Shown: positions 5,289-33,399, numbered from the stretch's first letter. The stretch: 64,000 nt of DNA from a virus (IMGVR_UViG_3300027782_000032:64001-128000); one strand, 5' to 3'. Made by a program: numbers and translations. Notes: a model not told the origin generated them from the letters alone.

Positions 5289-5299
5289 ATTAGTCCTTT

Positions 5300-10613: not shown

Positions 10614-11108
10614 CTAGTTTGCAAAAACTTTTCCAGCTTTTGCGTACTTGATTGTAGCTGAGGCGTTTATAGCCTTAAGCGACAGCTGTAGATCCGGTGG
10701 CATCACCGCCAGCTTAGCCCACTGTGGGCTAGTGGATGAGAATGCCTTAGCTGCATCTTTACCAAAGTGGTAAAGTACAGTCTCATCAAAACTATCATTA
10801 GCTAGCTCTGCGGCTAACTCATCCGACGGAAGACGATGAGTCTTGTCGAAAAAGCTAGCCTTAAAACTATCGATGTACGCCACTACATACGCCTTCTTCA
10901 CGGCATCGTAAGCCGACTCCTGCGGAGCCACTTCAATCGCCACCTCAGGCTCTACTGCAGGAGTAGCCTCAGGCTCCTCAAGCAACCTTAAAGCCATTTC
11001 TGAAGCAGCTGCCGATGCCTTCCTATCTGTGTATACCTTACCAAAAACTAGAATTGAGCATACAGAGACCACAGAAATCACAGCCCAAAAAACCTTATTA
11101 GTATTCAT
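10614..11108 (-). CDS. Hypothetical membrane-anchored protein (cassette gene)
   Basis: 164 aa, N-terminal hydrophobic helix, AAAGGAG RBS. Confidence 0.75.
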   Translation of the reverse strand: MNTNKVFWAVISVVSVCSILVFGKVYTDRKASAAASEMALRLLEEPEATPAVEPEVAIEVAPQESAYDAVKKAYVVAYIDSFKASFFDKTHRLPSDELAAELANDSFDETVLYHFGKDAAKAFSSTSPQWAKLAVMPPDLQLSLKAINASATIKYAKAGKVFAN

Positions 11109-11204
11109 GGTTATTTCTCCTTTAATGAGATGGCCACCACAGCCAGTTAATTACAACAGTGCAAGAACTCTTACTGAGCTCCTGAACACTATTGTATTCA
11201 ACTC
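11109..11204 (-). ncRNA. Putative structured 5' leader RNA, copy A (near-identical copy at 45245-45337, partial copy at 10478-10519)
   Basis: About 19-bp interrupted stem (11152-11196) plus a small GGCU/GGCC hairpin before the RBS; most differences between copies keep pairing. Confidence 0.55.
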
Positions 11205-11232
11205 ATTATGACGCAGTTTTGGCCTGAATTAA
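11205..11232 (-). promoter_or_regulatory. Cassette promoter P2
   Basis: TTAATTCAGGCCAAAACTGCGTCATAAT. Confidence 0.75.
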
Positions 11233-11238
11233 GCCCTG

Positions 11239-12012
11239 CTAGTCTATAGGCTTATTTAGATAGGTATCGCATATAAACCCTATGGAGTAACCCTTGTTAA
11301 GTTTGGTAACTACGGTTGTACGGCTTATTCCAAGGTACTTAGCCCAATCCGTCACAGTCATGTCCTTGCCGTTGTACTCATAGGTCTTATGAGTACGTAC
11401 CATATAAGATACTGGGTTTAGGGCTATCTCATCTCCGCTGTATCCTTGATTGTAAAGAAACACGGCTCTGTCATAGTTTAAACCTAGTAGCTTTACCAGA
11501 GCACCAAGCTTCATCGGCTTTCCTAAATATACTAAATCTCTAGACTTGTGCTCTAAAAGCTCTGGGTTTAGGGCGTCCTCTAAGGAAAACCCTCTGGCAA
11601 GCCTAGTAGCTGCTGTGTCGTAGTTTATATTCAAGTCCTTGCAAACCACAGACAATGGAAGCTGCACGCCGTTGTGTTCAACCATATGATTGCTGGTCTT
11701 GTTAAGAGCTTGAAGTGGAATCTTTATCCACTCCATGTTGCCGCATACATACCCTTCGTTATTGTCTATTCTTTCTATGCTGTATTCAGTCTTGGGCTCT
11801 GGGCACACTCCAACCTCGTTAAGAAAGTTTAGAAAGCTATACCTATACAAGTCTCCTACTCCAATACCCCTGCCTCCGTAGTTAGCATACCTATGGTGGT
11901 TAGGATTGTAGCACTTGGCGTTTATTCTCTGCCATGTCCTATACTCCTTTACATACTTAGCTCCCTTGGTGCTAGAGCCTCTTACGTCTCTAGCTGTGAA
12001 TGTGCCCTTCAT
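11239..12012 (-). CDS. Free-standing HNH-family (homing-type) endonuclease with three C-terminal HTH-like repeats
   Basis: CYNPNHHRYANYGGRGI...SIERIDNNEGYVCGNMEW; three G...L/I....RL/KL..GxS repeats. Start moved to ATG 12012 because of AGGAGG at 12021-12026. Confidence 0.82.
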   Translation of the reverse strand: MKGTFTARDVRGSSTKGAKYVKEYRTWQRINAKCYNPNHHRYANYGGRGIGVGDLYRYSFLNFLNEVGVCPEPKTEYSIERIDNNEGYVCGNMEWIKIPLQALNKTSNHMVEHNGVQLPLSVVCKDLNINYDTAATRLARGFSLEDALNPELLEHKSRDLVYLGKPMKLGALVKLLGLNYDRAVFLYNQGYSGDEIALNPVSYMVRTHKTYEYNGKDMTVTDWAKYLGISRTTVVTKLNKGYSIGFICDTYLNKPID

Positions 12013-12303: not shown

Positions 12304-12894
12304 CTACTTCTTTACAAAAGCCCACGAACTGTCTTTAAAGTACCTTATGTTTTCTTTTTTAAATATTTCGTCTACTGCTCTGCCTACGTCAGGCATGCAA
12401 TAGTCATGGCCTGCTATTAAGCCTCCAACCTTTACTTTGTCAGACCAAGCTTGTATGTCAGCTTTAACACTGTCATATGAGTGGTCTGCATCAATGTAGA
12501 CCATATCAATAGTTTCTTTACCAAACTCTTTTGCTAAAACCTCAGACTTAACTTTATGTTCAATTATGTTGTGGTTTCTAGACTTTGTATCTAAAAATTC
12601 TTTGTATATTACAGGAGCCATACTAGGGCTAATATACTCCTCCCAAATGTCACAACATACAACAACCCCAGCGTACTGAGCCATTAGCTCTGCAGAAGCT
12701 CCAGCGTAGCTTCCTACCTCTACAATCTTCCATCCTCTAGTTACTCTATAGTAATCAAGTAAATCTTTTAATCCAAACAGCCTGTTTATTGAAGGCATCT
12801 CTTCGTTAAAATAGTGATCGCTAGGTAAGTTAATAATCCTATACCTGTGTACTACTTTGTCAGCTAAGTTTTTAGTGTCATTATGATACGGCAT
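12304..12894 (-). CDS. Class I SAM-dependent methyltransferase (Methyltransf_24-like)
   Basis: VEVGSYAGAS; DMVYIDADHSYDSVKADI; GGLIAGHDY. Confidence 0.85.
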   Translation of the reverse strand: MPYHNDTKNLADKVVHRYRIINLPSDHYFNEEMPSINRLFGLKDLLDYYRVTRGWKIVEVGSYAGASAELMAQYAGVVVCCDIWEEYISPSMAPVIYKEFLDTKSRNHNIIEHKVKSEVLAKEFGKETIDMVYIDADHSYDSVKADIQAWSDKVKVGGLIAGHDYCMPDVGRAVDEIFKKENIRYFKDSSWAFVKK

Positions 12895-13629: not shown

Positions 13630-14304
13630 ATGGAATATAACGAATACTTTATCAAACGAATTAATAGGTATCAGTACGCTATTAATACGTATCCTAACAC
13701 AATGAATGATGAGCGAGGTGAAGCCTTAAGTAAGCTAGACTTGTTCGAGGGATGTAAATCTTTAGATCTAGGCAACAGCGGCCTAATGAACTTTACCAGC
13801 ATAGACTTTGAATTTAAGAAGCTTCCATTTGAAGACAAGTCATTTGACAGAGTTGTGATCATGGCAGTGCTGCATCATATATCAGTAGAGAATCGTGAGA
13901 TCCTGTACAAAGAGTGTATGCGTATCCTTAAGCAAGGTGGAAAGCTTGTGGTATCTGATGTTATTAAAGATTCGAAACAAGCCTACTGGCTTAATAACAT
14001 AGTAGACAAGTACAACAGCATAGGTCACAAAGGATTATTCTTTGATAAGTCAGATGAAGAGCTATTTAGGAAAACCGGATTTGATGTAAGAAGTGAAGTT
14101 GCTTCTTACTTCTGGTACTTCAAAAATAAGTCTGAACTAGAAGACTTTATAACTAACCTGTTTGGAATGGATCTAGCTGATAGCGTGTACGACATAGTTA
14201 ATGAGCACCTTGGGCTGAGCCCACACGGAGAAGAAGGGTTTAAATTTGAATGGAAGCTCATCTACTTTATAGCCACTTGTCCCCTAACTCTTTTTCAAGA
14301 TTAA
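13630..14304 (+). CDS. Class I SAM-dependent methyltransferase (Methyltransf_11-like)
   Basis: LPFEDKSFDRVVIMAVLHHI...CMRILKQGGKLVVSD. Start uncertain (ORF track gives 13552). Confidence 0.8.
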   Translation: MEYNEYFIKRINRYQYAINTYPNTMNDERGEALSKLDLFEGCKSLDLGNSGLMNFTSIDFEFKKLPFEDKSFDRVVIMAVLHHISVENREILYKECMRILKQGGKLVVSDVIKDSKQAYWLNNIVDKYNSIGHKGLFFDKSDEELFRKTGFDVRSEVASYFWYFKNKSELEDFITNLFGMDLADSVYDIVNEHLGLSPHGEEGFKFEWKLIYFIATCPLTLFQD

Positions 14305-15030: not shown

Positions 15031-15486
15031 TTAAGCGCCCTTCCACCACTCTGCAATATTTATAACTGAATGGTTTTGAAGTTCAGTGGATACGCGATAG
15101 CTGTCGTAATCAAAGTGCTGTGTAGAAGTCTCAAATATAACAGAGTCCTCTAACGCAAAAAACTGATGAATATGCCCAGGCATGACGTGCCAAGCCTGGC
15201 CTGGGTGTAACAACTTAGAAAGTACAGGCACGTCAGAAGTAGAGCTTTCAGAAGCTAAAGTAGTAGCCTCAGGTCGATCAGAGTAAAGCATCAACACCTT
15301 ACCAGAAACTACGGTAAGGGTTTCTTCTTTAATCTTGTGATAGTGAAAGCTGCAGTACTTAGAGGCACTCACTCTAAGTATTTTTCCACAGTAGGCTTCG
15401 TTGTTTACAATCCAGACCTCGCTTCCCCAGCTCTTGGGAACATAGGTCATGTGTTCAACTAGGCCGCTGAGTCTATTCTCTTTCAT
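15031..15486 (-). CDS. Cupin (sugar isomerase-like)
   Basis: KSWGSEVWIVNNEAYCGK, SFHYHKIKEET, GHIHQF. Confidence 0.8.
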   Translation of the reverse strand: MKENRLSGLVEHMTYVPKSWGSEVWIVNNEAYCGKILRVSASKYCSFHYHKIKEETLTVVSGKVLMLYSDRPEATTLASESSTSDVPVLSKLLHPGQAWHVMPGHIHQFFALEDSVIFETSTQHFDYDSYRVSTELQNHSVINIAEWWKGA

Positions 15487-16133
15487 CTCTTAGCCTCTGC
15501 TTTTCTAATAGCCGTCATAATTGATTGAAGAGAAGGATGACGCACAATCATGCTCTCATCAAAACCTACATAACCTACACAGTCTAGATTTTCAAGAGCA
15601 TAAGCGAACTCAGCAAAGCAGTTCCTTATTCTAAGATCGCTCTGCTCAGGATCACCACAAATGATTAGCTTGCCGTTCTTACCTAGCCTAGAAGTGAATA
15701 GCTTGAGCTGCTCCCACGTGCAGTTCTGAGCTTCATCGAGAATGGCAACGCAGTCATCAAAAGTTCTTCCTCTCATAACTGCTAAAGGAATAATCTCCAT
15801 AGACTTCATAACTTCTTTAGGATTGATAGTGGTGATTCTACGTAATACGTCCTCAATAGGAGCAACCCAAGGAGCTAGCTTGTCATTTATGTCGCCAGGC
15901 AAGAATCCCATCTTCTCACCGCACTCAACCATAGGTCTTGAAAGTATCATACGGCGGACCTTACCGCCTAAAAAAGAAGTTAAGGCCATCTTTACTGCTT
16001 GGTGTGTCTTACCTGTCCCTGCAGGCCCTGTTAGGAACAGAATATCTTTTTTTGGAAAAAGCTTTTCTGCTAATTTTTGTGCCTCGTTAATGGGTAAAAG
16101 TACGGGGTTGAGATCCTTAGGCAACTTGGCCAT
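15483..16133 (-). CDS. phoH: PhoH-like ATPase
   Basis: GPAGTGKT, RPMVECGEKMGFLPGD, RGRTF, DEAQN, GDPEQSD. Confidence 0.93.
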   Translation of the reverse strand: MAKLPKDLNPVLLPINEAQKLAEKLFPKKDILFLTGPAGTGKTHQAVKMALTSFLGGKVRRMILSRPMVECGEKMGFLPGDINDKLAPWVAPIEDVLRRITTINPKEVMKSMEIIPLAVMRGRTFDDCVAILDEAQNCTWEQLKLFTSRLGKNGKLIICGDPEQSDLRIRNCFAEFAYALENLDCVGYVGFDESMIVRHPSLQSIMTAIRKAEAKR

Positions 16134-16187: not shown

Positions 16188-16201
16188 TGGAGACGTCTCC
16201 A
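16188..16201. repeat. Iterated palindrome copy 2 (intergenic, just after the stop of a KLKKNR-tail gene)
   Basis: Read directly from the sequence. Confidence 0.95.
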
Positions 16202-16204
16202 CTA

Positions 16205-17113
16205 CTACCTATTCTTCTTAAGCTTGGATACCCCAGGTCTTGCAGCCTTAGACTTTTTCTTATTATTAGCTAAAGGTTTTGTTACTTTAGATACTGAAGC
16301 CTTTTGTTTATCAACTATGTTAGATAAAACTTTACCTGCAGCGCCTGCTGCGGCGTATGCTTCTATTGTTTTGCGGTCCAAAGAGCTATCTTTAGAGTTA
16401 AGCTTTGCAAGTACGTCTGCTTTAATTATTTGCGATTCAGTACTAGGTCTAAGTCCAAAAGCAACTATTTGATCTGAGTTGGAAGCAGTTTTGTTGCTTT
16501 GGGCAGATACAATCTTACTTACTAGTCCTTCTGCCGCTCTAACAGGGGCTAAAAACTTGTCCTTATCCGCACCTTTGTAAGCAACAGCAAGCATGTTTAT
16601 ACGATTTATTGCATTATTGCCTTCCGAATCGAGTCCACCTGTTGTGGCACGAGCCAAGGATTTTGAGTATGTTGCAATAAGCTGAGGCATCTCGTTCTGG
16701 TAGTTTCTGTCTCTAGTAGCTCGGTACTCGGCTTCAGCCTTTTGTGTTAGCATATCAAACTCCTTTTTTTGAGCAGCTATCCTTGCTGCTTCTGCTGGAG
16801 TAGGGCCGCCTCCGAATCCGAATGTGCGTCCTGGTGGAATACCGCCATTTCTAATCATAGCATCATTATACTCTGCTGCGCTTCGCTCCTGCTGACGTAA
16901 TCTATCAGCTTGCTCTACCTCAGCCATGTGCTTACCGTATGGAATGTCGTTTGCTCTCTTAAGCTTTTCATTGTCAGAAGCAACTGCTGCTGCAGATCTT
17001 GCAGCAAAATCACGATCCCACTGCCGCGAGTTCCTTTCTCTAAGCGCTTGGTCTTGGTACTCCATATATTGCTTCTGCTCAGCCGCAGTTGTCGGCGTAG
17101 GCCATCCTGCCAT
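16205..17113 (-). CDS. Orphan protein with basic C-terminal tail (VSKLKKNR)
   Basis: 302 aa, AAGGAG RBS; member of the tail array. Confidence 0.75.
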   Translation of the reverse strand: MAGWPTPTTAAEQKQYMEYQDQALRERNSRQWDRDFAARSAAAVASDNEKLKRANDIPYGKHMAEVEQADRLRQQERSAAEYNDAMIRNGGIPPGRTFGFGGGPTPAEAARIAAQKKEFDMLTQKAEAEYRATRDRNYQNEMPQLIATYSKSLARATTGGLDSEGNNAINRINMLAVAYKGADKDKFLAPVRAAEGLVSKIVSAQSNKTASNSDQIVAFGLRPSTESQIIKADVLAKLNSKDSSLDRKTIEAYAAAGAAGKVLSNIVDKQKASVSKVTKPLANNKKKSKAARPGVSKLKKNR

Positions 17114-17161
17114 AGTAACCTCCTTACTTTTATCTAGTCACCTAAAACTTAGTAAAGTAAT

Positions 17162-17944
17162 TTACCTTCTTCTATTTTGCTTTTTAATCTTGGCTATGCC
17201 CTTAGCAAAAGCCTTCTTAGCCTTTTCCTTTGCCTTTAGCTTGGCTGGTGGCTTCTTTACTTTTTCTGCAGCGGTCTTCTTATTAGTTAAAGCGTCAGCA
17301 AGCTTTTTTGAAGCTTCATCAGCTGCCTTTTTATTAACGGCTATTATGTCTGCTTTATTTTTATCGGTCTGAATACCTCTGTAGCTTCTACACTGTGCAG
17401 ATTGAAAGATAGCAGTGTTGACTAAGTTAGGTGAGTCGCACTTACCAGTGGCAACAGCGTTTGCTATGAGGTTAGGTAAAGAATTAGCAGCAGCCTTCTG
17501 TACTTCAGCCGCCGCTGCAGCGGCGGCGGCGTCTGCTGCTTCTTTAAGCTTTTGGTTGCGCGGTTTGTTCCTTTCAAAATTAGCAGCTATTTTATCGGCT
17601 ACTGATTTGTCATAAGCCAGCCTGTCGGCAACAGTGGCCTTAGCAATAGCCTCTCTAGCAATGCCTTCTGTGTCACCGCAATAGCCGCCGTTCTTTTGGC
17701 ATGATTCTACTGCAAGACCACCAAGCCTTGGATCAAAAACAGGAGGAGTGTATGGGACAATAGCTCCGATGCCAGGATTGGTGGAGTTAGCGCTAGGCTG
17801 CCTATTAATGGCTCCAGACAATTGAGTAACTGCTTCCCTTGCGTCTGAAGCAGCTCGAGATGCGTCTTCGTTAGCCTTCATGTTAGCTTGTACAGCTTGT
17901 TGTTGTTGCCAGTAAGGTAAATTTCGATTCAACATAAATGCCAT
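17162..17944 (-). CDS. Orphan Ala-rich protein with Cys pairs and basic tail (IAKIKKQNRRR)
   Basis: 260 aa; the RBS overlaps the upstream stop (TAAGGAG). Confidence 0.75.
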   Translation of the reverse strand: MAFMLNRNLPYWQQQQAVQANMKANEDASRAASDAREAVTQLSGAINRQPSANSTNPGIGAIVPYTPPVFDPRLGGLAVESCQKNGGYCGDTEGIAREAIAKATVADRLAYDKSVADKIAANFERNKPRNQKLKEAADAAAAAAAAEVQKAAANSLPNLIANAVATGKCDSPNLVNTAIFQSAQCRSYRGIQTDKNKADIIAVNKKAADEASKKLADALTNKKTAAEKVKKPPAKLKAKEKAKKAFAKGIAKIKKQNRRR

Positions 17945-17954
17945 TTTATTCTCC

Positions 17955-18845
17955 TTATTTTCTTTTCTTGGGTTTAGCTAACACCTTGTTCTTTGATTTT
18001 GCTTTAGACTTAGCTATAGCAGCTTCAACTGTATCCAAAAGCTTTTTAGTTTGAGCTTTATTTAAGTTAGCCTTCTTAGCAGCGCTTCTAGCGTCCTCTC
18101 TAAAAGCAGTAGCTCCAGCTACATTAGCTGCTGCGCTAGTACCTGCTACAAAGTTAGCAGAGGCTACAAACTTACCTATGTCAAATGGATCAGGCCGTGG
18201 CTCTTTAGGCGGCACTACGTTAGGCTTGCTATTGCATCTACAATGCCTAGTTGGCTTAGGATTAGCTGTAGGTAAAGGATTAGCTGTAGGTAAGGGATTA
18301 GCAGTAGGTAGGGGAGCTACTTGAGGCTGCTCTATTTCATACTGTGTAAACTGATCTGTACCTTGTACAGGTTGCTTTATAGCAGGCTGTCCTACTACTG
18401 GCTGAATAGCAGTTGGTGCAGGGCTGCCAGGGTCAGAACTGGTAAACGCATGAACCCACCAATCTGTTCCAGCTCCATAATCGCCTACGTTGTAACCTCT
18501 AGCGTTTTCTATAGAGGCTCCACCGCTAGACCTAACAGCAGAGTAAGGAGGCTTAGAGCCCATGGCATAATTAGGCATATTAGTAAGGGCAGCAGGAGGT
18601 ACAGCGAATGGCTGATTGATTGAGCCATCTCCCCACTTAGCTGTGGATCCGCCTGTTACAACTAAACCTTTAGAGGTTACAGCCTCTACACGGTAAACGC
18701 CGTCTAGGCTTTCATTCCAACCTGATATACCTGCTCTTTCAAATTGTCCAAGAGATATAACATCTCCTTGTTTAAATGGAACTCCGTTAGAACCTGTTGT
18801 AGTACCACTGCCTTTATTTGAAAATGTAATAATATTATATGACAT
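17955..18845 (-). CDS. Orphan protein with (PLPTAN)x3 repeat and basic tail (LAKPKKRK)
   Basis: 296 aa; TAGGAG stop/RBS overlap. Confidence 0.75.
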   Translation of the reverse strand: MSYNIITFSNKGSGTTTGSNGVPFKQGDVISLGQFERAGISGWNESLDGVYRVEAVTSKGLVVTGGSTAKWGDGSINQPFAVPPAALTNMPNYAMGSKPPYSAVRSSGGASIENARGYNVGDYGAGTDWWVHAFTSSDPGSPAPTAIQPVVGQPAIKQPVQGTDQFTQYEIEQPQVAPLPTANPLPTANPLPTANPKPTRHCRCNSKPNVVPPKEPRPDPFDIGKFVASANFVAGTSAAANVAGATAFREDARSAAKKANLNKAQTKKLLDTVEAAIAKSKAKSKNKVLAKPKKRK

Positions 18846-18856
18846 AGTCTTATCTC

Positions 18857-19753
18857 CTATCGGTTTTTCTTTTTAAGTTTAGAAACAGGAGCAGGCTTTT
18901 TATTTACTGGAGGCTTAGGGGCAGCCAATGCATTAGACTTAGCTGGCTGAGCATTCTTAATAGCCTTAGAAACTTTTGACTTAGCTTTTTTTGAACCTTT
19001 ATTAACTATAGGAACAAAGCTAGCGGTGTCTCCTTCTTCAAGGCTTTGAAGGTCCTCTGCCTCTACAGTTGGAATCGGCGCAGGATTAAATCCCAAGGTT
19101 TTATTTTTTTTAGCTGAACCCACACGGTTTAAAGAAGCTGAAGCTTTTGAGCCGCCTTGGTATGCAGCTTCAGCAGCTGGGTGCATGCCAGGAGCTTTAT
19201 AATCAGGCTCAACCTTGAAACCTAAATTCTTAATCTTTATCTCTAATCCAGCTATTCCTCCAGCTAGGTTGCTAGACTGTTGTCGAACAGCGGACCTAGC
19301 TGCCAGTAGTTTTCTTAAGTTTTCGGCTATGTACGCTTTAGCCTGTTCTTGTGGAGTTGTACCTTTTACTCTAGCCTCGTCTATGGTAGTTACACTGTTG
19401 CCGTAGTCTCCGTCCTGTCCTACGGTAAACGTCTCAGTAATTTCTTGTTTGGTCAGTCGGTCCACTCCAAGGACGTCGTAAGAGTCTTTAATTTGCACTG
19501 GTATGCCAGCCTCTAGTAGTCTATAAAGCCGGTCTAGCCTATCAAGCGCAGGCCTGAATCGGCTCATCTTTTGACGCGCAACAGCCAACTGACTGTTTAA
19601 GTCTGAAACTTGATTAATGGCCGTAGGTGAGGATCTGTTTAGCCCCTGCCTTAGCCTAAGCACGTATAGAGCCTGTGAAGCTTCATTAATAGCATCTTGA
19701 TCTCTTGCGTATGGGTCATTTACGATAGCTTGTAGCCTCATTTCTTCGTCCAT
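18857..19753 (-). CDS. Orphan protein with basic tail (PVSKLKKKNR)
   Basis: 298 aa; TAGGAG stop/RBS overlap. Confidence 0.75.
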   Translation of the reverse strand: MDEEMRLQAIVNDPYARDQDAINEASQALYVLRLRQGLNRSSPTAINQVSDLNSQLAVARQKMSRFRPALDRLDRLYRLLEAGIPVQIKDSYDVLGVDRLTKQEITETFTVGQDGDYGNSVTTIDEARVKGTTPQEQAKAYIAENLRKLLAARSAVRQQSSNLAGGIAGLEIKIKNLGFKVEPDYKAPGMHPAAEAAYQGGSKASASLNRVGSAKKNKTLGFNPAPIPTVEAEDLQSLEEGDTASFVPIVNKGSKKAKSKVSKAIKNAQPAKSNALAAPKPPVNKKPAPVSKLKKKNR

Positions 19754-19764
19754 ATTATTATCTC

Positions 19765-20706
19765 CTATCGGTTTTTCTTTTTAAGTTTAGAAACAGGAGG
19801 CCTAGCTACTTTTTTATTTTTCTTTTTTGATACTACAGGAGTTTTACCAGCTGGTCCCCTTGCTGAGCCTGATTGAGAGACTACAGCGTTAGCTAGTGCA
19901 TCGTATACTGGGAAAGCCTCTTTACGCTGGGCCGTAATAATAGGCTTAGCGACTGCGTCTATCGCTGCGGCTTGATTGTCTCTATTGGTCTGATCGTCAA
20001 GCTTGGCGTTGTTAGCTAAAGCCCTACGTGCTATCGCCGCCGCTCGCATATCTGCAGGTTCATACGACACAGTCCTAGTATCTTTACCTACTTGCGCTAA
20101 GTTAGCAGCTGCCTGCGCAGCAAAACCTTCAGAAGAACCAAGAGTTGAAGGACCGCTGTAATAATTAGTAAGCTGGACTTCGGCACTTGAGTTCCACGTA
20201 GTTTCAAGAGGATGAAGAAGGCCCTTTTTAATCATGTCCCTTCGTATTGCTTCTTTCATCTCTGGAGTGGCTGTACTAACTATTTCTGCAGCGTAAGCTG
20301 CAGCAGGTTTTGCAGCAATTTGATTTGCATTATTAATTAAAGCTTTAGCTTTATTGTCTCTATACCGTTGAGCTACTACAGCATTTGAATTACCCCTTTC
20401 ATAAAGTTTTATAGCATCCCTTTGAGCTCCTGTGCATTTAGTAACACCAATAGGCGCATTGAGGTTGGTATCACAACTAAACCCAAGCTGACGAGTTCTT
20501 ACATCTAGGAAATAATTAGAGTTTAAAGGGCCACTATATCGCAGCCTAGTTTCAGCAGCACTAACAGCATTAGCGTTTGCTATAGCCAGCTCAAATGGAG
20601 TTAGCCCTCTACCTGTAAAACCATTGGCCGGTTTAGAGTTAGCGTAGCGTAGTCGTTGTTCTTCTGCTGTTCCAAATATCCGCTCTCCAAGTGTAGGCTC
20701 AGCCAT
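19765..20706 (-). CDS. Orphan protein with basic tail (PVSKLKKKNR)
   Basis: 313 aa; starts 1 nt after the C39 peptidase stop. Confidence 0.75.
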   Translation of the reverse strand: MAEPTLGERIFGTAEEQRLRYANSKPANGFTGRGLTPFELAIANANAVSAAETRLRYSGPLNSNYFLDVRTRQLGFSCDTNLNAPIGVTKCTGAQRDAIKLYERGNSNAVVAQRYRDNKAKALINNANQIAAKPAAAYAAEIVSTATPEMKEAIRRDMIKKGLLHPLETTWNSSAEVQLTNYYSGPSTLGSSEGFAAQAAANLAQVGKDTRTVSYEPADMRAAAIARRALANNAKLDDQTNRDNQAAAIDAVAKPIITAQRKEAFPVYDALANAVVSQSGSARGPAGKTPVVSKKKNKKVARPPVSKLKKKNR

Positions 20707-20707
20707 G

Positions 20708-21292
20708 TTATCCTCCTACTTTTGTTGGTTTGTCTTCAAATAGGATCATAGAGATAGACTCTACAAACGCCTCTGTAACGGGCCTCTCATTCTTCCATAT
20801 CGCTAAGCCAAACCGCCTGTAAGGTCTTCCAGTCTTATCCTTATCATGCCACCTGTCTTCAAAGTCTTTCCAAGGTATATAGCCCCTAGCGTCATCTAAG
20901 GCTGGGTCTTCGAAGTAAACGTTATTAGCGTCGTAGTCTATTGCTATAACGTAGTGGCCGCTGTCTCCAGCTAGCTCAGCAGGCGTAGAAGCCCAAGCCT
21001 GCACAGCTATGATTACTGGATGGCCTTCTTCTAAATAATACTTAAGTTCTTGGTTGGTCATTCGCTCGTGCCATACCGTGCTGTAACCTCTTGCCTTGGC
21101 AGCCTTGCTAAGGGCCATAGGAGTGGTTCCGTCAACAGGATCGGACTTAAGCTCTGCAGCTAAAATAGACTCCTCGATGAACTCGCCCCAGTAGCCAAAG
21201 ATAGCGCTAAGGGCCGCGGGTCCGCACGTATAACAGGACTTCTGACGAGCGTCAGGTAAAGGTATTCGATTTCCTCGCAGGGTCCTGTCCAT
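20708..21292 (-). CDS. C39-family (papain-like) cysteine peptidase
   Basis: QKSCYTCGPAAL (Gln/Cys), GHYVIA (His), EDPA (Asp); AAGGAG RBS. Confidence 0.85.
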   Translation of the reverse strand: MDRTLRGNRIPLPDARQKSCYTCGPAALSAIFGYWGEFIEESILAAELKSDPVDGTTPMALSKAAKARGYSTVWHERMTNQELKYYLEEGHPVIIAVQAWASTPAELAGDSGHYVIAIDYDANNVYFEDPALDDARGYIPWKDFEDRWHDKDKTGRPYRRFGLAIWKNERPVTEAFVESISMILFEDKPTKVGG

Positions 21293-21408
21293 GTATGGCT
21301 CCTTGCGTGAGGGGTTAAGATGTAAAGCAGCTAAATGCCACTAATATATAATAACCCAGCTATCTCACGGTAGGAACCTATAAAAACTAATTAAACGTAA
21401 GTCCTTAT

Positions 21409-21654
21409 CTAGTCTTGCTTTAAAAGCATATTAAGGAACTGCTTGTTAGCAGATACAACTGGTTCAGGCCTGCCTAGGGTGGCATTACCTTGACCTCTTA
21501 CATCAGCGTTACGCCAAGTCCAGCACTCGCCTGTGTCATCTTGAAACACAACCCACATAAGATCGTGATCTTGGCTGTAGTCTATTATGACATGAGCCAT
21601 GCCCTTGCCTTTGATGGTTATAACTGGAATAGGAGGATCTAGCTGCAGCATCAT
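21409..21654 (-). CDS. Small hypothetical protein (MMLQLDPPIPV...)
   Basis: Start moved to ATG 21654 because of AAGGAG at 21661-21666. Confidence 0.7.
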   Translation of the reverse strand: MMLQLDPPIPVITIKGKGMAHVIIDYSQDHDLMWVVFQDDTGECWTWRNADVRGQGNATLGRPEPVVSANKQFLNMLLKQD

Positions 21655-21666
21655 AACTAACTCCTT

Positions 21667-21680
21667 TGGAGACGTCTCCA
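21667..21680. repeat. Iterated palindrome copy 3 (between a stop codon and the next RBS)
   Basis: Minus strand reads TAG-TGGAGACGTCTCCA-AAGGAG. Confidence 0.95.
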
Positions 21681-22292
21681 CTATCTGTTTTTCTTTTTAA
21701 GTTTTGCCACTGAACCTCTTTTACCAGTAGATTTTTTCTTAAGGCTAGATGGCTTGGTTCCAGCAGCTGGGGTGGAGGCTGGAGTGGAAGCTGAGCTACT
21801 TCCCCTTTGTACAGTAAAAGAAGCCTCAAGCTTTTGCCTTAAGTTTTTAAGACGTCCAACGTCTGCAGTGAGCTTTGACTTTATACCATCATACCCAGCT
21901 GGCATGGGGTAGCTCCTTTTATAATCACTAATAAATTGATTAAGCTCCTTAAACATGGCTTCACTTTTAATTTTACCAAAGTTAATTGTGCTAGTGGGCA
22001 AGCGACCACCATTTTTAAGGGCTGCCGCCTTCTGTTCTATGGTCACAGGAGGAGCATAGCCAAACTTGAGAGCTTCTAATCTAGATATAGTGTGCAATCT
22101 TGACTCATAGTCATAAACTATAGCATTGCCTGCTTTTATACTGCTAACTAGAGCTTGACCCTCAACAACGTGTGCAGGCGCTGCACCCTTAATTGCATGA
22201 CTAAACTCAAGAAGAAGACCGGCTATAGCTCTCGTTTCGTTTTCAGCAGCACTACTACCGCCGCCTGATGCCATTTGCATAAAATTAGTCAT
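21681..22292 (-). CDS. Orphan protein with basic tail (VAKLKKKNR)
   Basis: 203 aa, GGAG RBS. Confidence 0.75.
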   Translation of the reverse strand: MTNFMQMASGGGSSAAENETRAIAGLLLEFSHAIKGAAPAHVVEGQALVSSIKAGNAIVYDYESRLHTISRLEALKFGYAPPVTIEQKAAALKNGGRLPTSTINFGKIKSEAMFKELNQFISDYKRSYPMPAGYDGIKSKLTADVGRLKNLRQKLEASFTVQRGSSSASTPASTPAAGTKPSSLKKKSTGKRGSVAKLKKKNR

Positions 22293-22305
22293 AGTATAGT
22301 CTCCA

Positions 22306-22932
22306 CTATCGGTTTTTCTTTTTAAGTTTAGCTGCAGCTTTTGCTTTAGCTTTAGCCTTTGCTTTTAACTTAGCAGGCTTCTTTCCACTGGCTTTGGATG
22401 TGCCTAGCTCCCTTGCAACTTCATCGAAAGTAACATTAGATCTTGCAGTACCGAAGTTATCGGTGGCAATACGCTTTTTTTCTAATTCAAGACAGGTCTT
22501 ATCAACTGATCTATTTTGTGCATCACGAGCACCTGCGCTGCAAGCCCTACTGTAAGCATCACTAAGGGATTTATCAGCATCTCTACGGCGCGCTAGTATA
22601 GCTTGCTCTGCAGCTAATTCAGCTGCTTTCTTATCTTTATCTGCTTTAGCCTTAGCCGTATCCTTCAGGTACTTTTGAAGTTCGGCGTTGTTTTCTGCTT
22701 TAGCTTTGACGTTACGGTTGTAATCTTGGCAGTCGGTTACTGTTGTGTTTCCAAGACATCTTGAATAACCGAGGCGCTCCCTTTTCTTGTCATCGGTACC
22801 GCATATATCAACAAGTCCAGCAATCTGACCCGTACCCTTACCCTCTATGCATGGCCTAGATGTAATAAGGTTAAGCATCTGTGATCGTTCCCATAGCTGT
22901 TGCGCTCTTGGGTCATTACTAAATACTGCCAT
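22306..22932 (-). CDS. Orphan Cys-containing protein with basic tail (AAKLKKKNR)
   Basis: 208 aa, 6 Cys, AGGAG RBS. Confidence 0.75.
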   Translation of the reverse strand: MAVFSNDPRAQQLWERSQMLNLITSRPCIEGKGTGQIAGLVDICGTDDKKRERLGYSRCLGNTTVTDCQDYNRNVKAKAENNAELQKYLKDTAKAKADKDKKAAELAAEQAILARRRDADKSLSDAYSRACSAGARDAQNRSVDKTCLELEKKRIATDNFGTARSNVTFDEVARELGTSKASGKKPAKLKAKAKAKAKAAAKLKKKNR

Positions 22933-22955: not shown

Positions 22956-25214
22956 TTAAGCCCCTTTCAACCCTTGGTTATAACTGTTTTGTAATACACC
23001 TTCTGCTTGCCCGTTCTGCTGCTTCTGCTGGCCACCAAACATGCTGTGAAGCCCGTAGCCTGCTACGCCTGTGCCTAGAGCGCCTAAAAGGTACTTGGCC
23101 CAGGGGTTGTTCTGCATGAAGTTAACTACTGGAAGAGCGTATCCAGCGGTGCGCCTCTCAGCTTCGTACTGACCTGCAGAGTCGTACATGCCTTGCTGCA
23201 TGCCTCTACCTACATCTTTAACAGTGTCAATAGCTGGCGCAACGCCTGGAACTTTCCTAACTGTGTTGCCAATGTTAGTAGCCATAGTACCTAGACCTTG
23301 AGCTACTCCGCCTGCGTAGTTAGATGCGTTGTCCTTCATAGACCTTAGTTTACTTTTAGCAATAACACCCTTGGCCATAGTAAATGGGTTTAAAGATTTA
23401 CCTAAGTAACTATCAACCCCGTAGTCAATTGCTTTGTCTGCCCATCCATTAATCGTACTAGAGACGTCTCCAGTTCCTTTAAAGTAATTGCTTACGTTGT
23501 TAGCCATAGCAGGAAGGTCTGGTCGATTACTCATAGCCTGAAGGCGCTCAAAAGCCTCTGGGCTGTACATTGACTGCAAAGCTGTAGACCCTGCGTTCAT
23601 TACTCCTGACCCTATAGACTTTAAAGAAGGAGAAGGACTAGAAGCTGCAGGCGCTGCAGCCTTAGGAGCTGGAGCTGATCCTGCACTTGGTGCAGCAACG
23701 TCAGACTGCTTGCCCATACCCATGAGCGTTCCGCCTGCTGATAAGAAGTTTTTTCCAAGCCTTTGAGCTCCAGAAATAACCTTACCTGCGCTATCAGTGG
23801 CTTGTCCCATAGCCTTCTCAGCACCTTTAGCTTGATTGTATCGCCTAGTTACTTCCCCTGGGCTGGTCCAGCCTGGAGCCCTGACCCATTTTTCTACCTC
23901 TGAAGTTGCGGCTGCTCCAACCTGCCTGCCAGTGTTCTGCAACGACTTTTTCATGTTAGCAAAGTCAAAGCCTCTAGCTGGTGCAGTACCTAGTATGGAA
24001 GGATCTAGCTTAGCTTTTGAGCTTATACTAGAGAAGTCAAAGTTACGTGCAGGAGCTGTACCTGACGCAGAAGGAGCTGCATTAGCCCTTCCTAGCTGAG
24101 ACCGTTGCCTATAAGCCATTTCTCTTGATTTGTTACTATCGTCTATATTGTTAGCTATGCTGTGGAATGCACTTCCAAACTCTCCTACTGACTTTACAGG
24201 GTTAGCAAAGTTTTGATAGACCTGTTGCATGTAAGATGGCCCTTCAGCTTGCTTAGTTGATTGGCCCCTATCATTGTTATCTAGAACCAAGCCGCCAGCG
24301 TAAAGGCTTTCTGGAGAGCCATGGAAATGCTCTTTTACCATGCGCTTTAGCACTCGCTGCTCTGCCTGCCTGTATAGGTCTTGAAAGTTCAGCTTCTTAA
24401 GCTCTGGGTACTCTTCAGCGAAGTCTGAAAGCTCCCAGTCCTTCTTAGGGCGCTGCGCTCTAGGAATCGCAGGCTTATTACCAAACATAGACCTGTACAT
24501 GGATCCAGGTATGTTTTTCCATAACTTGACCATGCTCTGTGCTTGCTTAACCCCGCCAGCTGGATCAAAGCCTAGATTCTTCTCTGTTACTCTTCTTAAC
24601 GCATTACGCGCAGTACCAAGCGGAGCAACTGGCTTTAAACCTTTTTGATTAAAACTCATCTTTCCAGGGACTGGCTTAATTGGCTTAGTTACCTGCATAC
24701 CCTCTGAGGAGTCAGAGTTGATGGCGGTTTCTTCTTCATCACCAGATCCTCTGCCAGGACTGGTAATAACAGAAGACAGCTTAGACAGTAGCGTACGCTC
24801 TGCAGCAGCTTTCAAAGGAGACGAGCCTGCCCATATAGAGTACAAATATTTTACTGCAGCAAGGCTACTGCTCTTCTCAACCTTCTTAAGCTTAGTGTAA
24901 TACTCAGGATCTTGAGTTAAGTGATCCATGGCTATCTCTTTAGCCATGCCAGTGTCGTTAGTGTGCTCTTTTTCTTCGTCAATGCCTTCATCGAGTACTC
25001 CTTTAGAGAAGTCTGAAGGCTTCTTGTCATCGCCTACTCCACCCTTAAGCTTGTTAGTTTCTAAAGCCTTCTTCTCTGCTTGATCTTCTACATGCTCTGG
25101 TAGGTCTTTCTTACCTGTAGCGGTAGACCACTCATCGCAATCCCATGAGCCAGCTTGGCCTTTACCCTTGAGGAGGTAACATAATTTACGTTGTGAATCA
25201 GATTTGAACGGCAT
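22956..25214 (-). CDS. Large multi-module protein with an N-terminal EHT...AxEIAxDHL...YY module (DUF5661-like from recall) and low-complexity C-terminus
   Basis: EEKEHTNDTGMAKEIAMDHLTQDPEYYTKL. Start moved to MPFKS (25214) with GGAG RBS. Confidence 0.7.
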   Translation of the reverse strand: MPFKSDSQRKLCYLLKGKGQAGSWDCDEWSTATGKKDLPEHVEDQAEKKALETNKLKGGVGDDKKPSDFSKGVLDEGIDEEKEHTNDTGMAKEIAMDHLTQDPEYYTKLKKVEKSSSLAAVKYLYSIWAGSSPLKAAAERTLLSKLSSVITSPGRGSGDEEETAINSDSSEGMQVTKPIKPVPGKMSFNQKGLKPVAPLGTARNALRRVTEKNLGFDPAGGVKQAQSMVKLWKNIPGSMYRSMFGNKPAIPRAQRPKKDWELSDFAEEYPELKKLNFQDLYRQAEQRVLKRMVKEHFHGSPESLYAGGLVLDNNDRGQSTKQAEGPSYMQQVYQNFANPVKSVGEFGSAFHSIANNIDDSNKSREMAYRQRSQLGRANAAPSASGTAPARNFDFSSISSKAKLDPSILGTAPARGFDFANMKKSLQNTGRQVGAAATSEVEKWVRAPGWTSPGEVTRRYNQAKGAEKAMGQATDSAGKVISGAQRLGKNFLSAGGTLMGMGKQSDVAAPSAGSAPAPKAAAPAASSPSPSLKSIGSGVMNAGSTALQSMYSPEAFERLQAMSNRPDLPAMANNVSNYFKGTGDVSSTINGWADKAIDYGVDSYLGKSLNPFTMAKGVIAKSKLRSMKDNASNYAGGVAQGLGTMATNIGNTVRKVPGVAPAIDTVKDVGRGMQQGMYDSAGQYEAERRTAGYALPVVNFMQNNPWAKYLLGALGTGVAGYGLHSMFGGQQKQQNGQAEGVLQNSYNQGLKGA

Positions 25215-25300
25215 ATCTAGGCTCCTGATGGTGACGTATAGCGTCATCCATTATATCAAGAGCCTTCTACGGAAGCTATATATTCATATAAAGCCTTGAA

Positions 25301-27171: not shown

Positions 27172-27248
27172 ATGGTCTACATTACTGAATTAGCATACAT
27201 GTATAGCATAAATAGAAGCTATAAGTTAAGTGCATAATCAAATTAGGG

Positions 27249-28678: not shown

Positions 28679-29236
28679 CTACACTACTGACAGCTTACTC
28701 ACCTCATTATCCTCAGTAACTCTCTTCTTCTTACACCCTACTGGAATGTAGAACCCCAGTTGTGGAGACGTCTCCAATCCGTAGCTTCGTCGGATGGACT
28801 CTAGGTCATCGCTCTTAATAGAAATAGCCCACAGCTTTTCATACTCACCTGTTGCAGGCAGCTCAACTATAGGGCCAAGAGTGTAGTGATAAGAGTGACC
28901 GCGCTCAGTGATATGGCTAGTTCCGCCTAGCTTATCTACCTCTTCTTTGGTCATTACCTTGATAGCGCACTCAGTTCTATTGTTACGCACAACGAATTCA
29001 GCCCCTGGCTCATCTAGAGCGTCAAAGACACCTTTGATAAGCGAAGAGGGGACTGTTAGTTCTAGGTTACCGCTGGGACCTGCTTGAAGCCTGCCAGCAA
29101 GAGCGTGCACTGAAGCGTGATCCGCACTCTTGTTCATATGGCCATGCGCCTGCCCAAACGAGAACATCTCAGCGTTGAGAGCCTTGAGCCACTCAGCGCC
29201 TTTGATAAGTCCTAATGATATCGGAGGTATGGTCAT
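28679..29236 (-). CDS. Hypothetical protein
   Basis: 185 aa; ATGA-coupled to the upstream gene; contains the palindrome (LETSPQ). Confidence 0.7.
   Translation of the reverse strand: MTIPPISLGLIKGAEWLKALNAEMFSFGQAHGHMNKSADHASVHALAGRLQAGPSGNLELTVPSSLIKGVFDALDEPGAEFVVRNNRTECAIKVMTKEEVDKLGGTSHITERGHSYHYTLGPIVELPATGEYEKLWAISIKSDDLESIRRSYGLETSPQLGFYIPVGCKKKRVTEDNEVSKLSVV
28763..28776. repeat. Iterated palindrome copy 4 (in CDS)
   Basis: Read directly from the sequence. Confidence 0.95.
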
Positions 29237-30411
29237 TTAGATGTCTCCAGTATTCTACGCAGCCACAGCTGACCGGCTGGGCTGTTTAAATCGGAGGGCT
29301 TATACTTCTTTGCCAGTTCGCCTAGCTCTCTGTTGGACATACTGACCTCCGGTGAGAAATTATAGTCCCCGCCCATGTGCTTTCCGGTAACGTCTTTAAA
29401 AGCCCTGGCTGATTGTCCAAGTTCATTAAATACAGCCCCTGCCTCAATAGCAGCTGTCCTTCCTTTAGCGGCTAAAGAATCCGAAAGTTTGGAAGGGCTA
29501 AAAGGGTCTGCATAAGTATTATCGGATATCTTATTAGAGTTATTGCCTGTATTGTACCATCTTAATGCTCTAGGGCCTTTTGCATATGTACTAACCGCAT
29601 TAGTATGATTTTTTCCAAGGGCATCCTTGTCGTAATAGTCACCAATCGCATCATGTCTCGTTGACCTGTTGTTTATGGGCAGCCCTTTATGGTCTGTTGT
29701 TTGTGTATAGTATGTGCGGCCTCCCATCCCCAGATCCTGCCAACCAGCGTGAGTGTTTTCGTGTACTCTAGTGGCGTTTATGTTGTCTAGGCTTCTAGGC
29801 TCGTCAGTTGTTTTTTGAGCCCCTCCAGCATAACGAGGTCGGCCTAGATCTGGGTGAAGCCTAGGCACCAATGAGTACTGCACACTTGGACTGCCCGGGT
29901 ATGACCACTCGGCTGCATGAGGCGCTTGCCCAAGAGCATCGAACGGGTGCTTAGACCAAGCCATATGTGGTATTGGAGCGTTATCACTCATATCCGAAGC
30001 TATTTGACCCATCCTTGCATTCCACTTGTTCCATGCCCCGTCTTGACCTAGCAGTGAAGACCGACTCGGCATTGTCGGAGAGGTTTTAGGGTTTAGCTCA
30101 TTTAACTGTCCGGTAAGACTTTCGTGGAACTTAAGTCTACTTGTCCCTAACCCTCCTTCAGGTGGAGAATAGTTAGTGGATATAAAGGCGTTATATGGCT
30201 CCTCAGATTTAAGACTCCATTTGCCGTCTGGTGACTTAACAGATAAATCAGGAACCCTAGGTGTAGTAGAGGCTGAAGGAAGAGTTCCAACTCTATTATG
30301 TAGTCCTCCGTAGACGTTTTTTGGAGGGCCTACCTTAAAATCGTGGTCTTCGTTAGCAGCTCTCTTCCCCATCATGCGCCCAAACGCTGCTGCTTTTTCT
30401 AGTCTGTTCAT
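29233..30411 (-). CDS. MNRLEK-leader protein with an HExxH motif (possible zincin metallopeptidase cargo)
   Basis: N-terminal MNRLEKAAAFGRMMGK; RVHENTHAG with a later AIEAG. Confidence 0.65.
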   Translation of the reverse strand: MNRLEKAAAFGRMMGKRAANEDHDFKVGPPKNVYGGLHNRVGTLPSASTTPRVPDLSVKSPDGKWSLKSEEPYNAFISTNYSPPEGGLGTSRLKFHESLTGQLNELNPKTSPTMPSRSSLLGQDGAWNKWNARMGQIASDMSDNAPIPHMAWSKHPFDALGQAPHAAEWSYPGSPSVQYSLVPRLHPDLGRPRYAGGAQKTTDEPRSLDNINATRVHENTHAGWQDLGMGGRTYYTQTTDHKGLPINNRSTRHDAIGDYYDKDALGKNHTNAVSTYAKGPRALRWYNTGNNSNKISDNTYADPFSPSKLSDSLAAKGRTAAIEAGAVFNELGQSARAFKDVTGKHMGGDYNFSPEVSMSNRELGELAKKYKPSDLNSPAGQLWLRRILETSK

Positions 30412-31058
30412 TGGTTTGTCTCGTCTGAGTTAACCTTAAAAAGTTCGTTTAAGTCTTTTGGATTCTTTGTATCATACTCGACTGTGCCAGGCGTGCTACC
30501 ATATCTGTTTACAAGCCTGTAGTTGCTGTCATATAGTTTCTTGCCAGTATCGTACTTACGTGCCTCTATCTCTTCGTCCCAAGGCTTTCCCTTTGCTATG
30601 TTCTTTCTTTTAACTCTCTCTATCCGCTGCTTTAGTAGGTCTTGCAAAGGTGTGGTAACCAGTACTCTGTTAGGATACCTTGCAAGCTGACCTCTACCTA
30701 GCAAAGACAACTGAGTCCCCTCAACAACTGCACCGTCCTTAGCGGAATCAAGCATCTCTGTAGCCATTCCCCTAGCCGCATTTAGAAATCTTCTTCTCTC
30801 CGGAGATCCTGCTATAGTATGTCGGATGTCTGGGTCACTTTCTAACATAGGGCGCCATCTAGGATGATCATCGATAGATAATACAGGAAGCTTTAAAGCC
30901 TCTCCAAGGCTTTTAGCTACCGTAGACTTACCTGCTCCGCTATGACCGCTAACAAGAAACACTCTACGTCCTGCATCGTTTACAGAGTCCAAGCCTAGAT
31001 CAGCAGCAAGCTTCCCCATCATGCGCCCAAACGCTGCTGCTTTTTCTAGTCTGTTCAT
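30408..31058 (-). CDS. MNRLEK-leader protein with a P-loop kinase-like domain
   Basis: VSGHSGAGKST Walker A. Start moved to 31058, 2 nt after the upstream stop. Confidence 0.75.
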   Translation of the reverse strand: MNRLEKAAAFGRMMGKLAADLGLDSVNDAGRRVFLVSGHSGAGKSTVAKSLGEALKLPVLSIDDHPRWRPMLESDPDIRHTIAGSPERRRFLNAARGMATEMLDSAKDGAVVEGTQLSLLGRGQLARYPNRVLVTTPLQDLLKQRIERVKRKNIAKGKPWDEEIEARKYDTGKKLYDSNYRLVNRYGSTPGTVEYDTKNPKDLNELFKVNSDETNQ

Positions 31059-31060
31059 GA

Positions 31061-32779: not shown

Positions 32780-32796
32780 GGCGCTCCTCTGTAGGT

Positions 32797-33399
32797 TTAC
32801 TTATTAGACCTCAAACCTAAGTATTTAGCAGCGGTTTCGCCTGCACTACTTAAATCATTAAGAAGGTTATTGCCTCCTGCTCCACTACCTGTACCTGTAA
32901 GGTATCCAACACCCTCGTTAACAGCTTCATTCATTTTTTTAGTGTTTAGTAAGCCGCCAGTGTAAGGTACTTCCCCTAGCATGACGTTGCTTCCTATAAG
33001 ATCTTTTTGTGACTTCTCAGTAGCGTCTGGTGATGTGTTATTTACAGCGTGCATGCGATCTTTGTGCAACTGCTTTAACATCGTAAGTGGGTTATACATT
33101 TGATAAGCGGCTGTACCTGCACCTCCTAACATACCAGCGCCTGCACCAAGAAGACCGCCTCTTGTAGCCCCGTACAAAGCTCTGCTAAGTGCGCCCCGTC
33201 TAGGTTTGCCTGAACCGTCCTCATCTTCTTCGTTACCTACCATTCCGGTTAAGCCTGCAAGGCCGCCCAAGGCTGCACCTCCAAGTCCGCCTAAACCGCC
33301 AAAGCCAGCAGCATTAGTTAGAACTCCGTTGTATCCTTCGCCGGCTGCAGCTTTGCCCATCATTGCTCCGAAAGCTGCTGCTTTTTCTAATCTGTTCAT
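32797..33399 (-). CDS. MNRLEK-leader protein with Gly-rich hydrophobic segments
   Basis: MNRLEKAAAFGAMMGKAAA; AGGAG RBS. Confidence 0.75.
   Translation of the reverse strand: MNRLEKAAAFGAMMGKAAAGEGYNGVLTNAAGFGGLGGLGGAALGGLAGLTGMVGNEEDEDGSGKPRRGALSRALYGATRGGLLGAGAGMLGGAGTAAYQMYNPLTMLKQLHKDRMHAVNNTSPDATEKSQKDLIGSNVMLGEVPYTGGLLNTKKMNEAVNEGVGYLTGTGSGAGGNNLLNDLSSAGETAAKYLGLRSNK

Follow-up and report, generated by a model that had tools for sequence, protein, structure and literature searches.

The DNA examined here is a 64,000-nucleotide window, bases 64001-128000 of the 190,371-bp IMG/VR record of an uncultured freshwater phage (genome ~190 kb, completeness estimate 92%), and its subject is an array of seven genes (16205-22932) whose dissimilar products end in a common basic tail. 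Positions are those of the window, and all genes of the locus lie on the minus strand. The locus opens with a DUF5661 protein (22956-25214), followed by gene G (22306-22932; 208 residues; six conserved cysteines), ending in AKAKAKAKAAAKLKKKNR (..AAKLKKKNR), and by gene F (21681-22292; 203 residues), a cassette that is present or absent among genomes and ends in ..GSVAKLKKKNR. An acidic protein of 81 residues (21409-21654) comes next, directly upstream of a C39-like papain-fold cysteine peptidase (20708-21292) in which the basic tail is absent. The second sub-array then consists of gene E (19765-20706; 313 residues), with the tail VSKKKNKKVARPPVSKLKKKNR (..PVSKLKKKNR); gene D (18857-19753; 298 residues), with PAPVSKLKKKNR (again ..PVSKLKKKNR); gene C (17955-18845; 296 residues), with ..VLAKPKKRK; gene B (17162-17944; 260 residues, four cysteines), with FAKGIAKIKKQNRRR (..IAKIKKQNRRR); and gene A (16205-17113; 302 residues, no cysteine), with ARPGVSKLKKNR (..VSKLKKNR). 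A PhoH-like ATPase (15483-16133) forms the conserved downstream border. The listing of open reading frames (ORFs) bears out the seven C-termini, on proteins of 203-313 residues, that an earlier note on this DNA had quoted.

The tail is exceptional within its own genome. When the 158 ORFs of at least 150 residues are ranked by the net charge of their last 35 residues, the array genes take the top seven places at +10 to +14 (A, +12; B, +14), all others reaching +6 at most, and all seven proteins have an isoelectric point of 9.8-10.2. The genome-wide search for such C-termini (590 ORFs, 190,371 bp) recovered six of the seven array genes, gene A lying one residue under the cut-off, together with three unrelated ORFs, at least two of which are overlapping and probably spurious. 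The genome contains the motif [LVI][SAPT]K[LPIM]K[KG] seven times, where 0.5 would be expected; six of these copies lie in array genes, 2-5 residues short of the C-terminus. A chance origin of the sharing is excluded. The common basic segment extends well beyond the last 7-10 residues, to ~20-40, as in the 41 columns that align at 44% identity between families A and E. Its end follows the pattern aliphatic-small-K-[L/P]-K-[K/G]-[K/R] plus 0-5 residues. Numbered from the first lysine of this pattern, 44 non-redundant tails hold an aliphatic residue at −2 in 40, a small one at −1 in 38, lysine at 0 in 38, leucine or proline at +1 in 39, lysine at +2 in 42, and lysine or glycine at +3 in 42. The tails are probably disordered, judging from AlphaFold2 (AF2) models of C and E, where they have a low predicted local distance difference test score (pLDDT) and no secondary structure. 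A search with the tail region of E alone (residues 270-313) returned family E members only, and a literature search yielded no account of a common basic C-terminal tag in phage gene arrays.

Dissimilar bodies in a constant frame

The bodies are as dissimilar as had been noted. All-against-all BLASTP matches only the tails; hidden Markov models (HMMs) of nine families gave no cross-match to other array bodies, and their weak matches to other tailed members, at 11-17 bits, probably reflect the common tails; and profile-profile alignment with hhalign aligns only the last 15 (C/E), 41 (A/E), or 17 (A/C) columns. Homology among the bodies, which the earlier note had named as the finding that would reduce the tail to shared ancestry, was thus looked for by three methods and not found, and by these comparisons a single paralogous family for the seven is rejected. 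Deep searches of billions of proteins place families C, E, and A within this phage lineage only: family C comprises 10 clusters among 5.8 billion proteins, E eight, and A five, with no named relative for any of them. The body of gene B was not found in the six relatives examined. PHROGs and Pfam, run on all array proteins, matched only the peptidase and the DUF5661 protein. In the AF2 model of C (pLDDT 59.9) a beta domain is joined through a Pro-rich linker to a helical hairpin, after which comes the tail; the model of E (pLDDT 44.6) is all-helical, and both are of low confidence. For these two proteins neither Foldseek (PDB, BFVD) nor VIA-align gave a significant or specific match, only generic helical hairpins; the ESM Atlas yielded nothing useful for D.

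The comparison took in eight more loci, drawn from collections of viral and metagenome sequences (L005-L007, L016, L020, L022, L026, and L029). The order is constant in all relatives: the DUF5661 protein, zero to two tailed genes, the 81-residue gene, the peptidase, one to six tailed genes, and PhoH. Into this frame are set one to eight tailed genes per locus, from at least 14 body families (48 ORFs clustered), and ~90% of the array genes end in a basic tail. The frame and its contents have evolved at very different rates. Among relatives the peptidase is 93-99% identical, PhoH 82-99%, and the 81-residue protein 73-93%, while array bodies are 27-86% identical or absent altogether. The contrast between flanks at 82-99% and bodies at 27-86% indicates rapid turnover of the bodies. 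One tailed gene carries two tandem 189-nucleotide copies, 95% identical (L006:11659-12036), an internal duplication of the body that is still in progress.

The tails fall into three dialects: KLKKKNR (dialect 1), found in the window, L016, and L026; KPKGRR (dialect 2), in L007 and L020; and TKLKGKK (dialect 3), which appears as T[KP]LKGKK-like tails in L005 and L006. In the loci compared, tail type tracks the genome and not the body, one dialect being kept per genome. Homologous bodies with differing dialects occur in families A, C, and E and in four others. Family E gives the clearest alignment: as far as G[KR]TPV its bodies share 64-87% identity, after which comes a 22-residue tail of dialect 1 or 2, either VSKKKNKKVARPPVSKLKKKNR or APPKPPKKxPKKPLPKPKGRR. 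Two of its members (P0016 and P0018) form a 100/100 clade and are 87% identical in their bodies and 38% in their tails. Likewise, D has a homologue in L006 that matches it at 51% identity over the first 190 residues and ends in ..RRKLARLKAGR, while the G homologue in L005 is 48% identical, with all six cysteines aligned, and bears another tail. An exhaustive phmmer search for A found five relatives only, whose tails are of dialect 1, 2, or 3.

A joint of tail, stop codon, and ribosome site

The exchange of tails has a counterpart in the DNA. The 41-bp identity that had been reported between 18851-18891 and 19759-19799 is real, and is part of a 49-nucleotide repeat, 96% identical, formed by the tail-stop-ribosome-binding-site blocks of D (18843-18891) and E (19751-19799). 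Genes D, E, and G encode their tails with the same 24-nucleotide codon string, AAACTTAAAAAGAAAAACCGATAG, down to the rare CGA and the TAG stop; F differs by one Arg codon. Under the codon usage of the genome the probability of this string, given the peptide, is 2e-4 per tail, from which a common DNA ancestry of the tails follows. Beyond the stop, the block extends into the ribosome site of the next gene (TAG-GAGATAA) or, after A, F, and G, into the palindrome TGGAGAC(GTCTCCA). Relatives hold repeats of the same kind: tail-stop-ribosome-site repeats of 42 (100%) and 70 (87%) nucleotides in L016, and a 37-nucleotide tail-TAG-palindrome repeat (92%) in L007.

Gene F provides a natural variant of the array. 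It is bounded by two such repeats, the tail-stop-palindrome block of F itself (21667-21715; TAG followed by TGGAGACGTCTCCA) on the right and the tail-stop-half-palindrome block of G (22292-22340) on the left, at a spacing of 625. A metagenome contig (run X6) joins 21673 directly to 22299, and the 625 bases it skips correspond exactly to gene F and to the spacing of the two repeats. The alignment of L026 has the identical F-less junction, where the tail of G is fused to the palindrome of F. The F cassette indel is hence bounded by two tail-stop-TGGAGAC repeats, and since its junctions fall at the repeat spacing, gain or loss of a cassette at the module is observed and not merely inferred. The earlier proposal of a portable tail-stop-ribosome-site module, by which genes join or leave the operon, is upheld by the codon string, the repeats in relatives, the tail swaps, and the F-less variant. 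As these comparisons show, the repeated DNA, ending in ribosome site or palindrome, is a recombination joint at which cassettes are gained, lost, and re-tailed, and the locus is a hypervariable cassette array, each cassette pairing a fast-evolving, lineage-specific body with an exchangeable polybasic C-terminal module.

The full palindrome TGGAGACGTCTCCA, which recurs throughout the phage genome, closes each sub-array in three genomes: it follows immediately on the stop codon of the sub-array's last tailed gene, ahead of the 81-residue gene or of PhoH. Its sites are 16188-16201 (after the stop of A) and 21667-21680 in the window, L016:7149-7162 and 13689-13702 (approximate), and L007:9621-9634 and 12751-12764 (approximate); the copy behind gene G is a half copy. 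The tails of E and D also contain a slippery run, A-AAA-AAG (19775-19795 and 18867-18887), with the −1 frame open through both the E-D and the D-C junctions. Programmed −1 frameshifting at this run was rejected, as the frame relations at the G-F, C-B, and B-A junctions differ and no general rule emerges.

Among known systems, a near parallel to the joint is provided by the promoter-early stem-loop (PeSL) cassettes, mobile regulatory elements found in T4-type phages (Arbiol et al., 2010, PMC2839356). There, too, short conserved gene-border sequences act as recombination joints for the gain, loss, and replacement of small accessory genes, and both the F indel and the family E swaps at G[KR]TPV are likewise bounded by the border sequence. 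The PeSL joint, however, is a non-coding promoter and terminator, whereas the joint of the array spans the coding tail, the stop, and the next ribosome site; since the tail is included, each gene that enters the array also receives the tag in its protein product. Whatever the function of the tail, a recombination joint that couples protein tag, stop codon, and ribosome site is unusual as genome architecture.

What the tail may do

Lys/Ala/Pro-rich tails that bind DNA are familiar from the histone H1 C-terminal domain, the mycobacterial HupB tail, Chlamydia Hc1, and Pseudomonas AlgP, which resemble the array tails in composition, probable disorder, and high positive charge. These are single housekeeping nucleoid proteins, unlike a swappable tag with a fixed terminal motif on unrelated bodies. 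Four basic residues suffice for short peptides to bind to and slide on DNA, and their exact sequence is irrelevant (PMC4797294). The array tails do contain clusters of four or more basic residues in a Lys/Arg/Ala/Pro-rich segment predicted to be disordered, the features described for such peptides (PMC4797294). Because peptides of this kind bind regardless of sequence (PMC4797294), the tails, at +10 to +14, would almost certainly have affinity for DNA in vitro, and DNA binding is very likely. A viral precedent is the adenovirus peptide pVIc (GVQSLKRRRCF, core KRRR), a short basic C-terminal peptide that binds and slides on DNA and carries cargo (PMC4740752, PMC4797294, PMC4246237). In adenovirus, further, a cysteine protease works inside the capsid amid basic proteins that are bound to DNA, a possible likeness to the present locus. 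Adenovirus differs in being a eukaryotic virus with a clan CE protease instead of a C39-like one, and in that cleavage sets pVIc free to serve as a cofactor.

The reading that we prefer, tentatively, is that the tail is a DNA-binding address or handle on accessory proteins that are carried in the head and injected. As a common address the tail would bind DNA non-specifically, in the manner of molecular sled peptides and histone-H1-like tails, and/or dock on an acidic component of the head, for example the putative scaffold (48395-49648 of the genome), which adjoins the capsid gene and has a net charge of −32. A portal-like protein is encoded in the window at 52533-54440. The earlier note had raised co-packaging through a DNA handle; passage through the portal on DNA is mechanically unlikely, so that loading would need to take place at the prohead stage. 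In this way the prohead would take up the bodies, which would rest on the packaged DNA and reach the host together with it, to act there as fast-evolving accessory proteins, possibly against host defences. The peptidase and the acidic 81-residue protein would be candidate processing or chaperone partners, although no cleavage motif was found.

The arrangement would mirror, at the C-terminus, the internal-protein system of T4. The T4 proteins IPI, IPII, IPIII, and Alt share a capsid targeting sequence, have lysines that contact the packaged DNA, and are encoded at loci that are polymorphic between related phages (PMC3012670). Both systems comprise diverse, fast-evolving basic accessory proteins with only a short address in common (PMC3012670), and the array is likewise a hypervariable locus of basic proteins (pI 9.8-10.2; 1-8 genes from at least 14 families). 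The T4 tag, however, is N-terminal, ~10 residues long, non-basic, and removed by the prohead protease (PMC3012670), whereas the array tag is C-terminal, polybasic, and 20-40 residues long, its location in the virion being proposed from sequence. A common N-terminal targeting sequence of the T4 type is not present, the N-termini of the seven proteins being different. The Pfam prohead proteases S77 and S78 found no match in the genome, but the S77 control matched nowhere; no common cleavage motif was seen.

Cysteine content lends indirect support to carriage of the proteins in virions. Sixteen of the 33 array proteins have no cysteine, 16 an even number, and one an odd number; the corresponding counts for 118 controls are 15, 46, and 57. 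Zero or even counts therefore mark 32 of 33 array proteins and 61 of 118 controls (P=4e-7), with 9 of 10 even when counted by family (P=0.004), and the excess of cysteine-free proteins (16/33 vs. 15/118) is itself marked (P=3e-5). In family E, C78 and C91 are invariant. The array proteins avoid unpaired cysteines, a pattern that fits carriage in the virion. The RNA polymerase, sigma factor, and helicase of this phage are also cysteine-free, and their homologues in Salmonella phage Arash are among the most detected virion proteins (PMC10585845). By eye, no array protein has an N-terminal hydrophobic signal peptide.

Arash is the sole cultured relative with a virion proteome. The bacterial-type RNA polymerase ties the phage of the window to it, and to some Vibrio phages, only distantly (~31% identity), and by BLAST the two have ~14 proteins in common. 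The Arash virion packs three adjacent basic, Ala/Gly/Lys-rich proteins, gp95-97 (406, 816, and 1060 spectra; PMC10585845), whose likeness to the array proteins is compositional only. Their genes (gp95c-gp97c; L025, 54867-57243) lie among tRNA genes, outside the structural module, and the proteins end in a Gly/Ala-rich hydrophobic stretch with a basic end.

A stronger form of the proposal, possible though doubtful, is that the tail is a true C-terminal head-loading code, specific to the dialect and read by a co-evolving head component, such that any gene recombining at the joint would become injected cargo automatically. A search for a receptor matched to the dialects identified none, with few genomes at hand and dialect confounded with phylogeny. 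Encapsulin cargo-loading peptides, which are not known to be polybasic, offer an analogy. These are also short C-terminal tags that take unrelated cargo into an HK97-fold shell, but they bind a defined pocket of the shell protein without DNA (PMC8346489). If such a code exists, it would be a natural plug-and-play system for protein delivery, the phage counterpart of the encapsulin peptides. Even the simpler reading, of an address that loads proteins into the head or lets them ride on DNA, would, if it holds, mark a class of phage “dark matter” genes as injected accessory proteins and prime anti-defence candidates, show a phage tagging a newly acquired gene at the moment of recombination, supply a short peptide that could be moved onto foreign proteins to bring them into large phage heads, and make the dialects an experimental route to the receptor.

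Several observations weigh against a head address. None of the array families has a homologue in Arash (nor have the DUF5661 protein and PhoH), and its proteome lists 116 of 272 proteins, metabolic enzymes included, so that contaminants are possible (PMC10585845). The array lies outside the head module, in a neighbourhood of methyltransferase, oxygenase, PhoH, and ribonucleotide reductase genes. The AF2 models are poor (44.6 and 59.9), and an informative fold match is lacking. The last two or three residues of the tail are partly set by the Shine-Dalgarno sequence of the next gene, AGGAGA being read as Arg-Arg in L016. Gene conversion alone can make tails uniform within a genome, without any specific receptor. 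Finally, four consecutive genes elsewhere in the window carry a candidate T4-like leader of their own, with which a second head address would be unnecessary. These genes (29233-33399) begin MNRLEK(A/T).. (MNRLEKAAAFG..) on different bodies; three of the four continue ..AAAFG.MMGK.AA, and three of the four are cysteine-free. The leader is a candidate N-terminal head-targeting sequence of the T4 kind, separate from the C-terminal tail family.

The main rival, though unlikely, dispenses with the virion. Here the array proteins would be intracellular nucleic-acid binders that are never packaged, an H1-like tail tethering their bodies to host or phage DNA (or RNA) for roles such as nucleoid remodelling, protection of phage DNA, or host shut-off. 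The Lys/Ala/Pro-rich composition and the charge of +10 to +14 are those of non-specific DNA binders (PMC4797294), the neighbouring genes serve metabolism and DNA modification and are not head genes, and upstream of the locus there is an extended −10 sequence of sigma-70-like type, TGATATAAT. Against this stand the zero or even cysteine counts in 32 of 33 proteins and the conserved pairs (C78/C91 in E, six cysteines in G), which suggest exposure to oxidising conditions and would be unusual for purely cytoplasmic proteins. Plain charge binding, moreover, would not call for a motif held so strictly at 2-5 residues from the C-terminus, nor for the conserved aliphatic residue.

A third explanation, an improbable one, makes the tail a tag for another machine or compartment: a cleavable tail of the C39-like peptidase, a polybasic membrane anchor, or a type IV-like export signal. 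An extreme C-terminal motif with a conserved aliphatic residue resembles a short linear motif read by a protein, and substrates of type IV secretion carry positively charged C-terminal signals. The peptidase gene is the most conserved of the locus, is found within the array of every relative together with that of the small acidic protein, and is coupled to the tailed gene that follows; its product may be a processing enzyme, cargo, or unrelated to the tails. Its sequence contains the Q-x3-C and GHY motifs, with the catalytic Cys and His of a C39 peptidase. However, the Gly-Gly expected of substrates of C39 (double-glycine) peptidases is found within the last 70 residues in just 5 of 33 array proteins, its position varying, and no other common site before the tail was seen; hydrophobic segments are absent, and no secretion genes lie nearby; and the peptidase sequence does not follow the dialect. 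Peptidase homologues in two huge phages (LR756511 and LR756501) are not flanked by basic-tail arrays.

More improbable still is that conservation acts mainly on the nucleotides, an A-rich block being kept as translation-initiation region and recombination joint with the basic peptide as a by-product. The block does contain the Shine-Dalgarno sequence of the next gene, its end residues shift with the frame (NR-stop in the window, NNRR-stop in L016), and the identical codons imply spread at the DNA level. Yet dialect 2 (KPKGRR) is basic though not A-rich, the basic region of 60-120 nucleotides far exceeds a ribosome site, and A and F, at the ends of their sub-arrays, keep the tail although the palindrome and not a ribosome-binding site follows their stops. 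Such tails occur, furthermore, in no other tightly packed operon of the genome, and tails only 29-38% identical still keep lysine at 0 and +2 and the aliphatic residue at −2. That the seven genes are diverged paralogues, with the tail as the last recognisable trace of common ancestry, can practically be set aside: some arrays do hold paralogues (L005 11536/12824/13659; L020 10810/12378) and the proteins have a helical, Ala/Lys/Gln-rich character in common, but neither BLAST nor HMMs nor hhalign match any body to another, the predicted beta domain of C contrasts with the all-helical prediction for E, and tails are exchanged on otherwise conserved bodies.

Flanking genes, promoters, and a second tag

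The C39-like assignment of the peptidase rests on matches to PF13529 (2e-14) and PF03412 (8.5e-10). Between genomes whose neighbouring genes are only 38-60% identical the peptidase keeps 93-99% identity and stands out as an extremely conserved island; so does PhoH (82-99%), which is recognised by Pfam in relatives. The 81-residue protein has no PHROGs or Pfam family, and in the ESM Atlas it leads only to unnamed viral clusters. The DUF5661 protein (763 residues; PF18905, 7.6e-9), for which a literature search yielded no paper, probably starts at M12 of the listed ORF, with MPFKSDSQRKLC.., and ends in a Gly/Ala-rich hydrophobic segment; among relatives its N-terminal 50 residues are 96% identical and the remainder 38-60%.

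Three operon starts of this region are preceded, at 44-82 nucleotides, by TATAG[CG]TTC[CT] on the minus strand (21374-21383, 25272-25281, and 27215-27224). The core TATAG[CG]TTC, found ahead of the peptidase, the DUF5661 gene, and the gene at 26500, has its sole intergenic copies here, and may define a local promoter class around the array. As a genome-wide promoter motif it was rejected, only these three of 15 genome sites being intergenic, which leaves the array unassignable to an early or late class; a simple scan for sigma-70 promoters and terminators added nothing of use. In one RNA run (X24), five contigs are 100% identical to the locus over PhoH, D, G, and the DUF5661 gene; they come from a single library and are no proof of transcription.

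The most acidic protein of the genome (37928-38755; 275 residues, pI 4.1, net −43) adjoins a basic protein of 781 residues (+16). No paper in the literature searched links the motif D-P-Y-G-E-E-[ND]-W to phages. In a 735-kb huge phage (L024; LR756501.1 533523-557996), near a peptidase homologue 33% identical to that of the array, at least nine different small ORFs end in this acidic motif, at 4749-5471 and 18887-22251 on the minus strand and 10973-11725 on the plus strand; on its recurrence at these ends, it is a second kind of common C-terminal tag.

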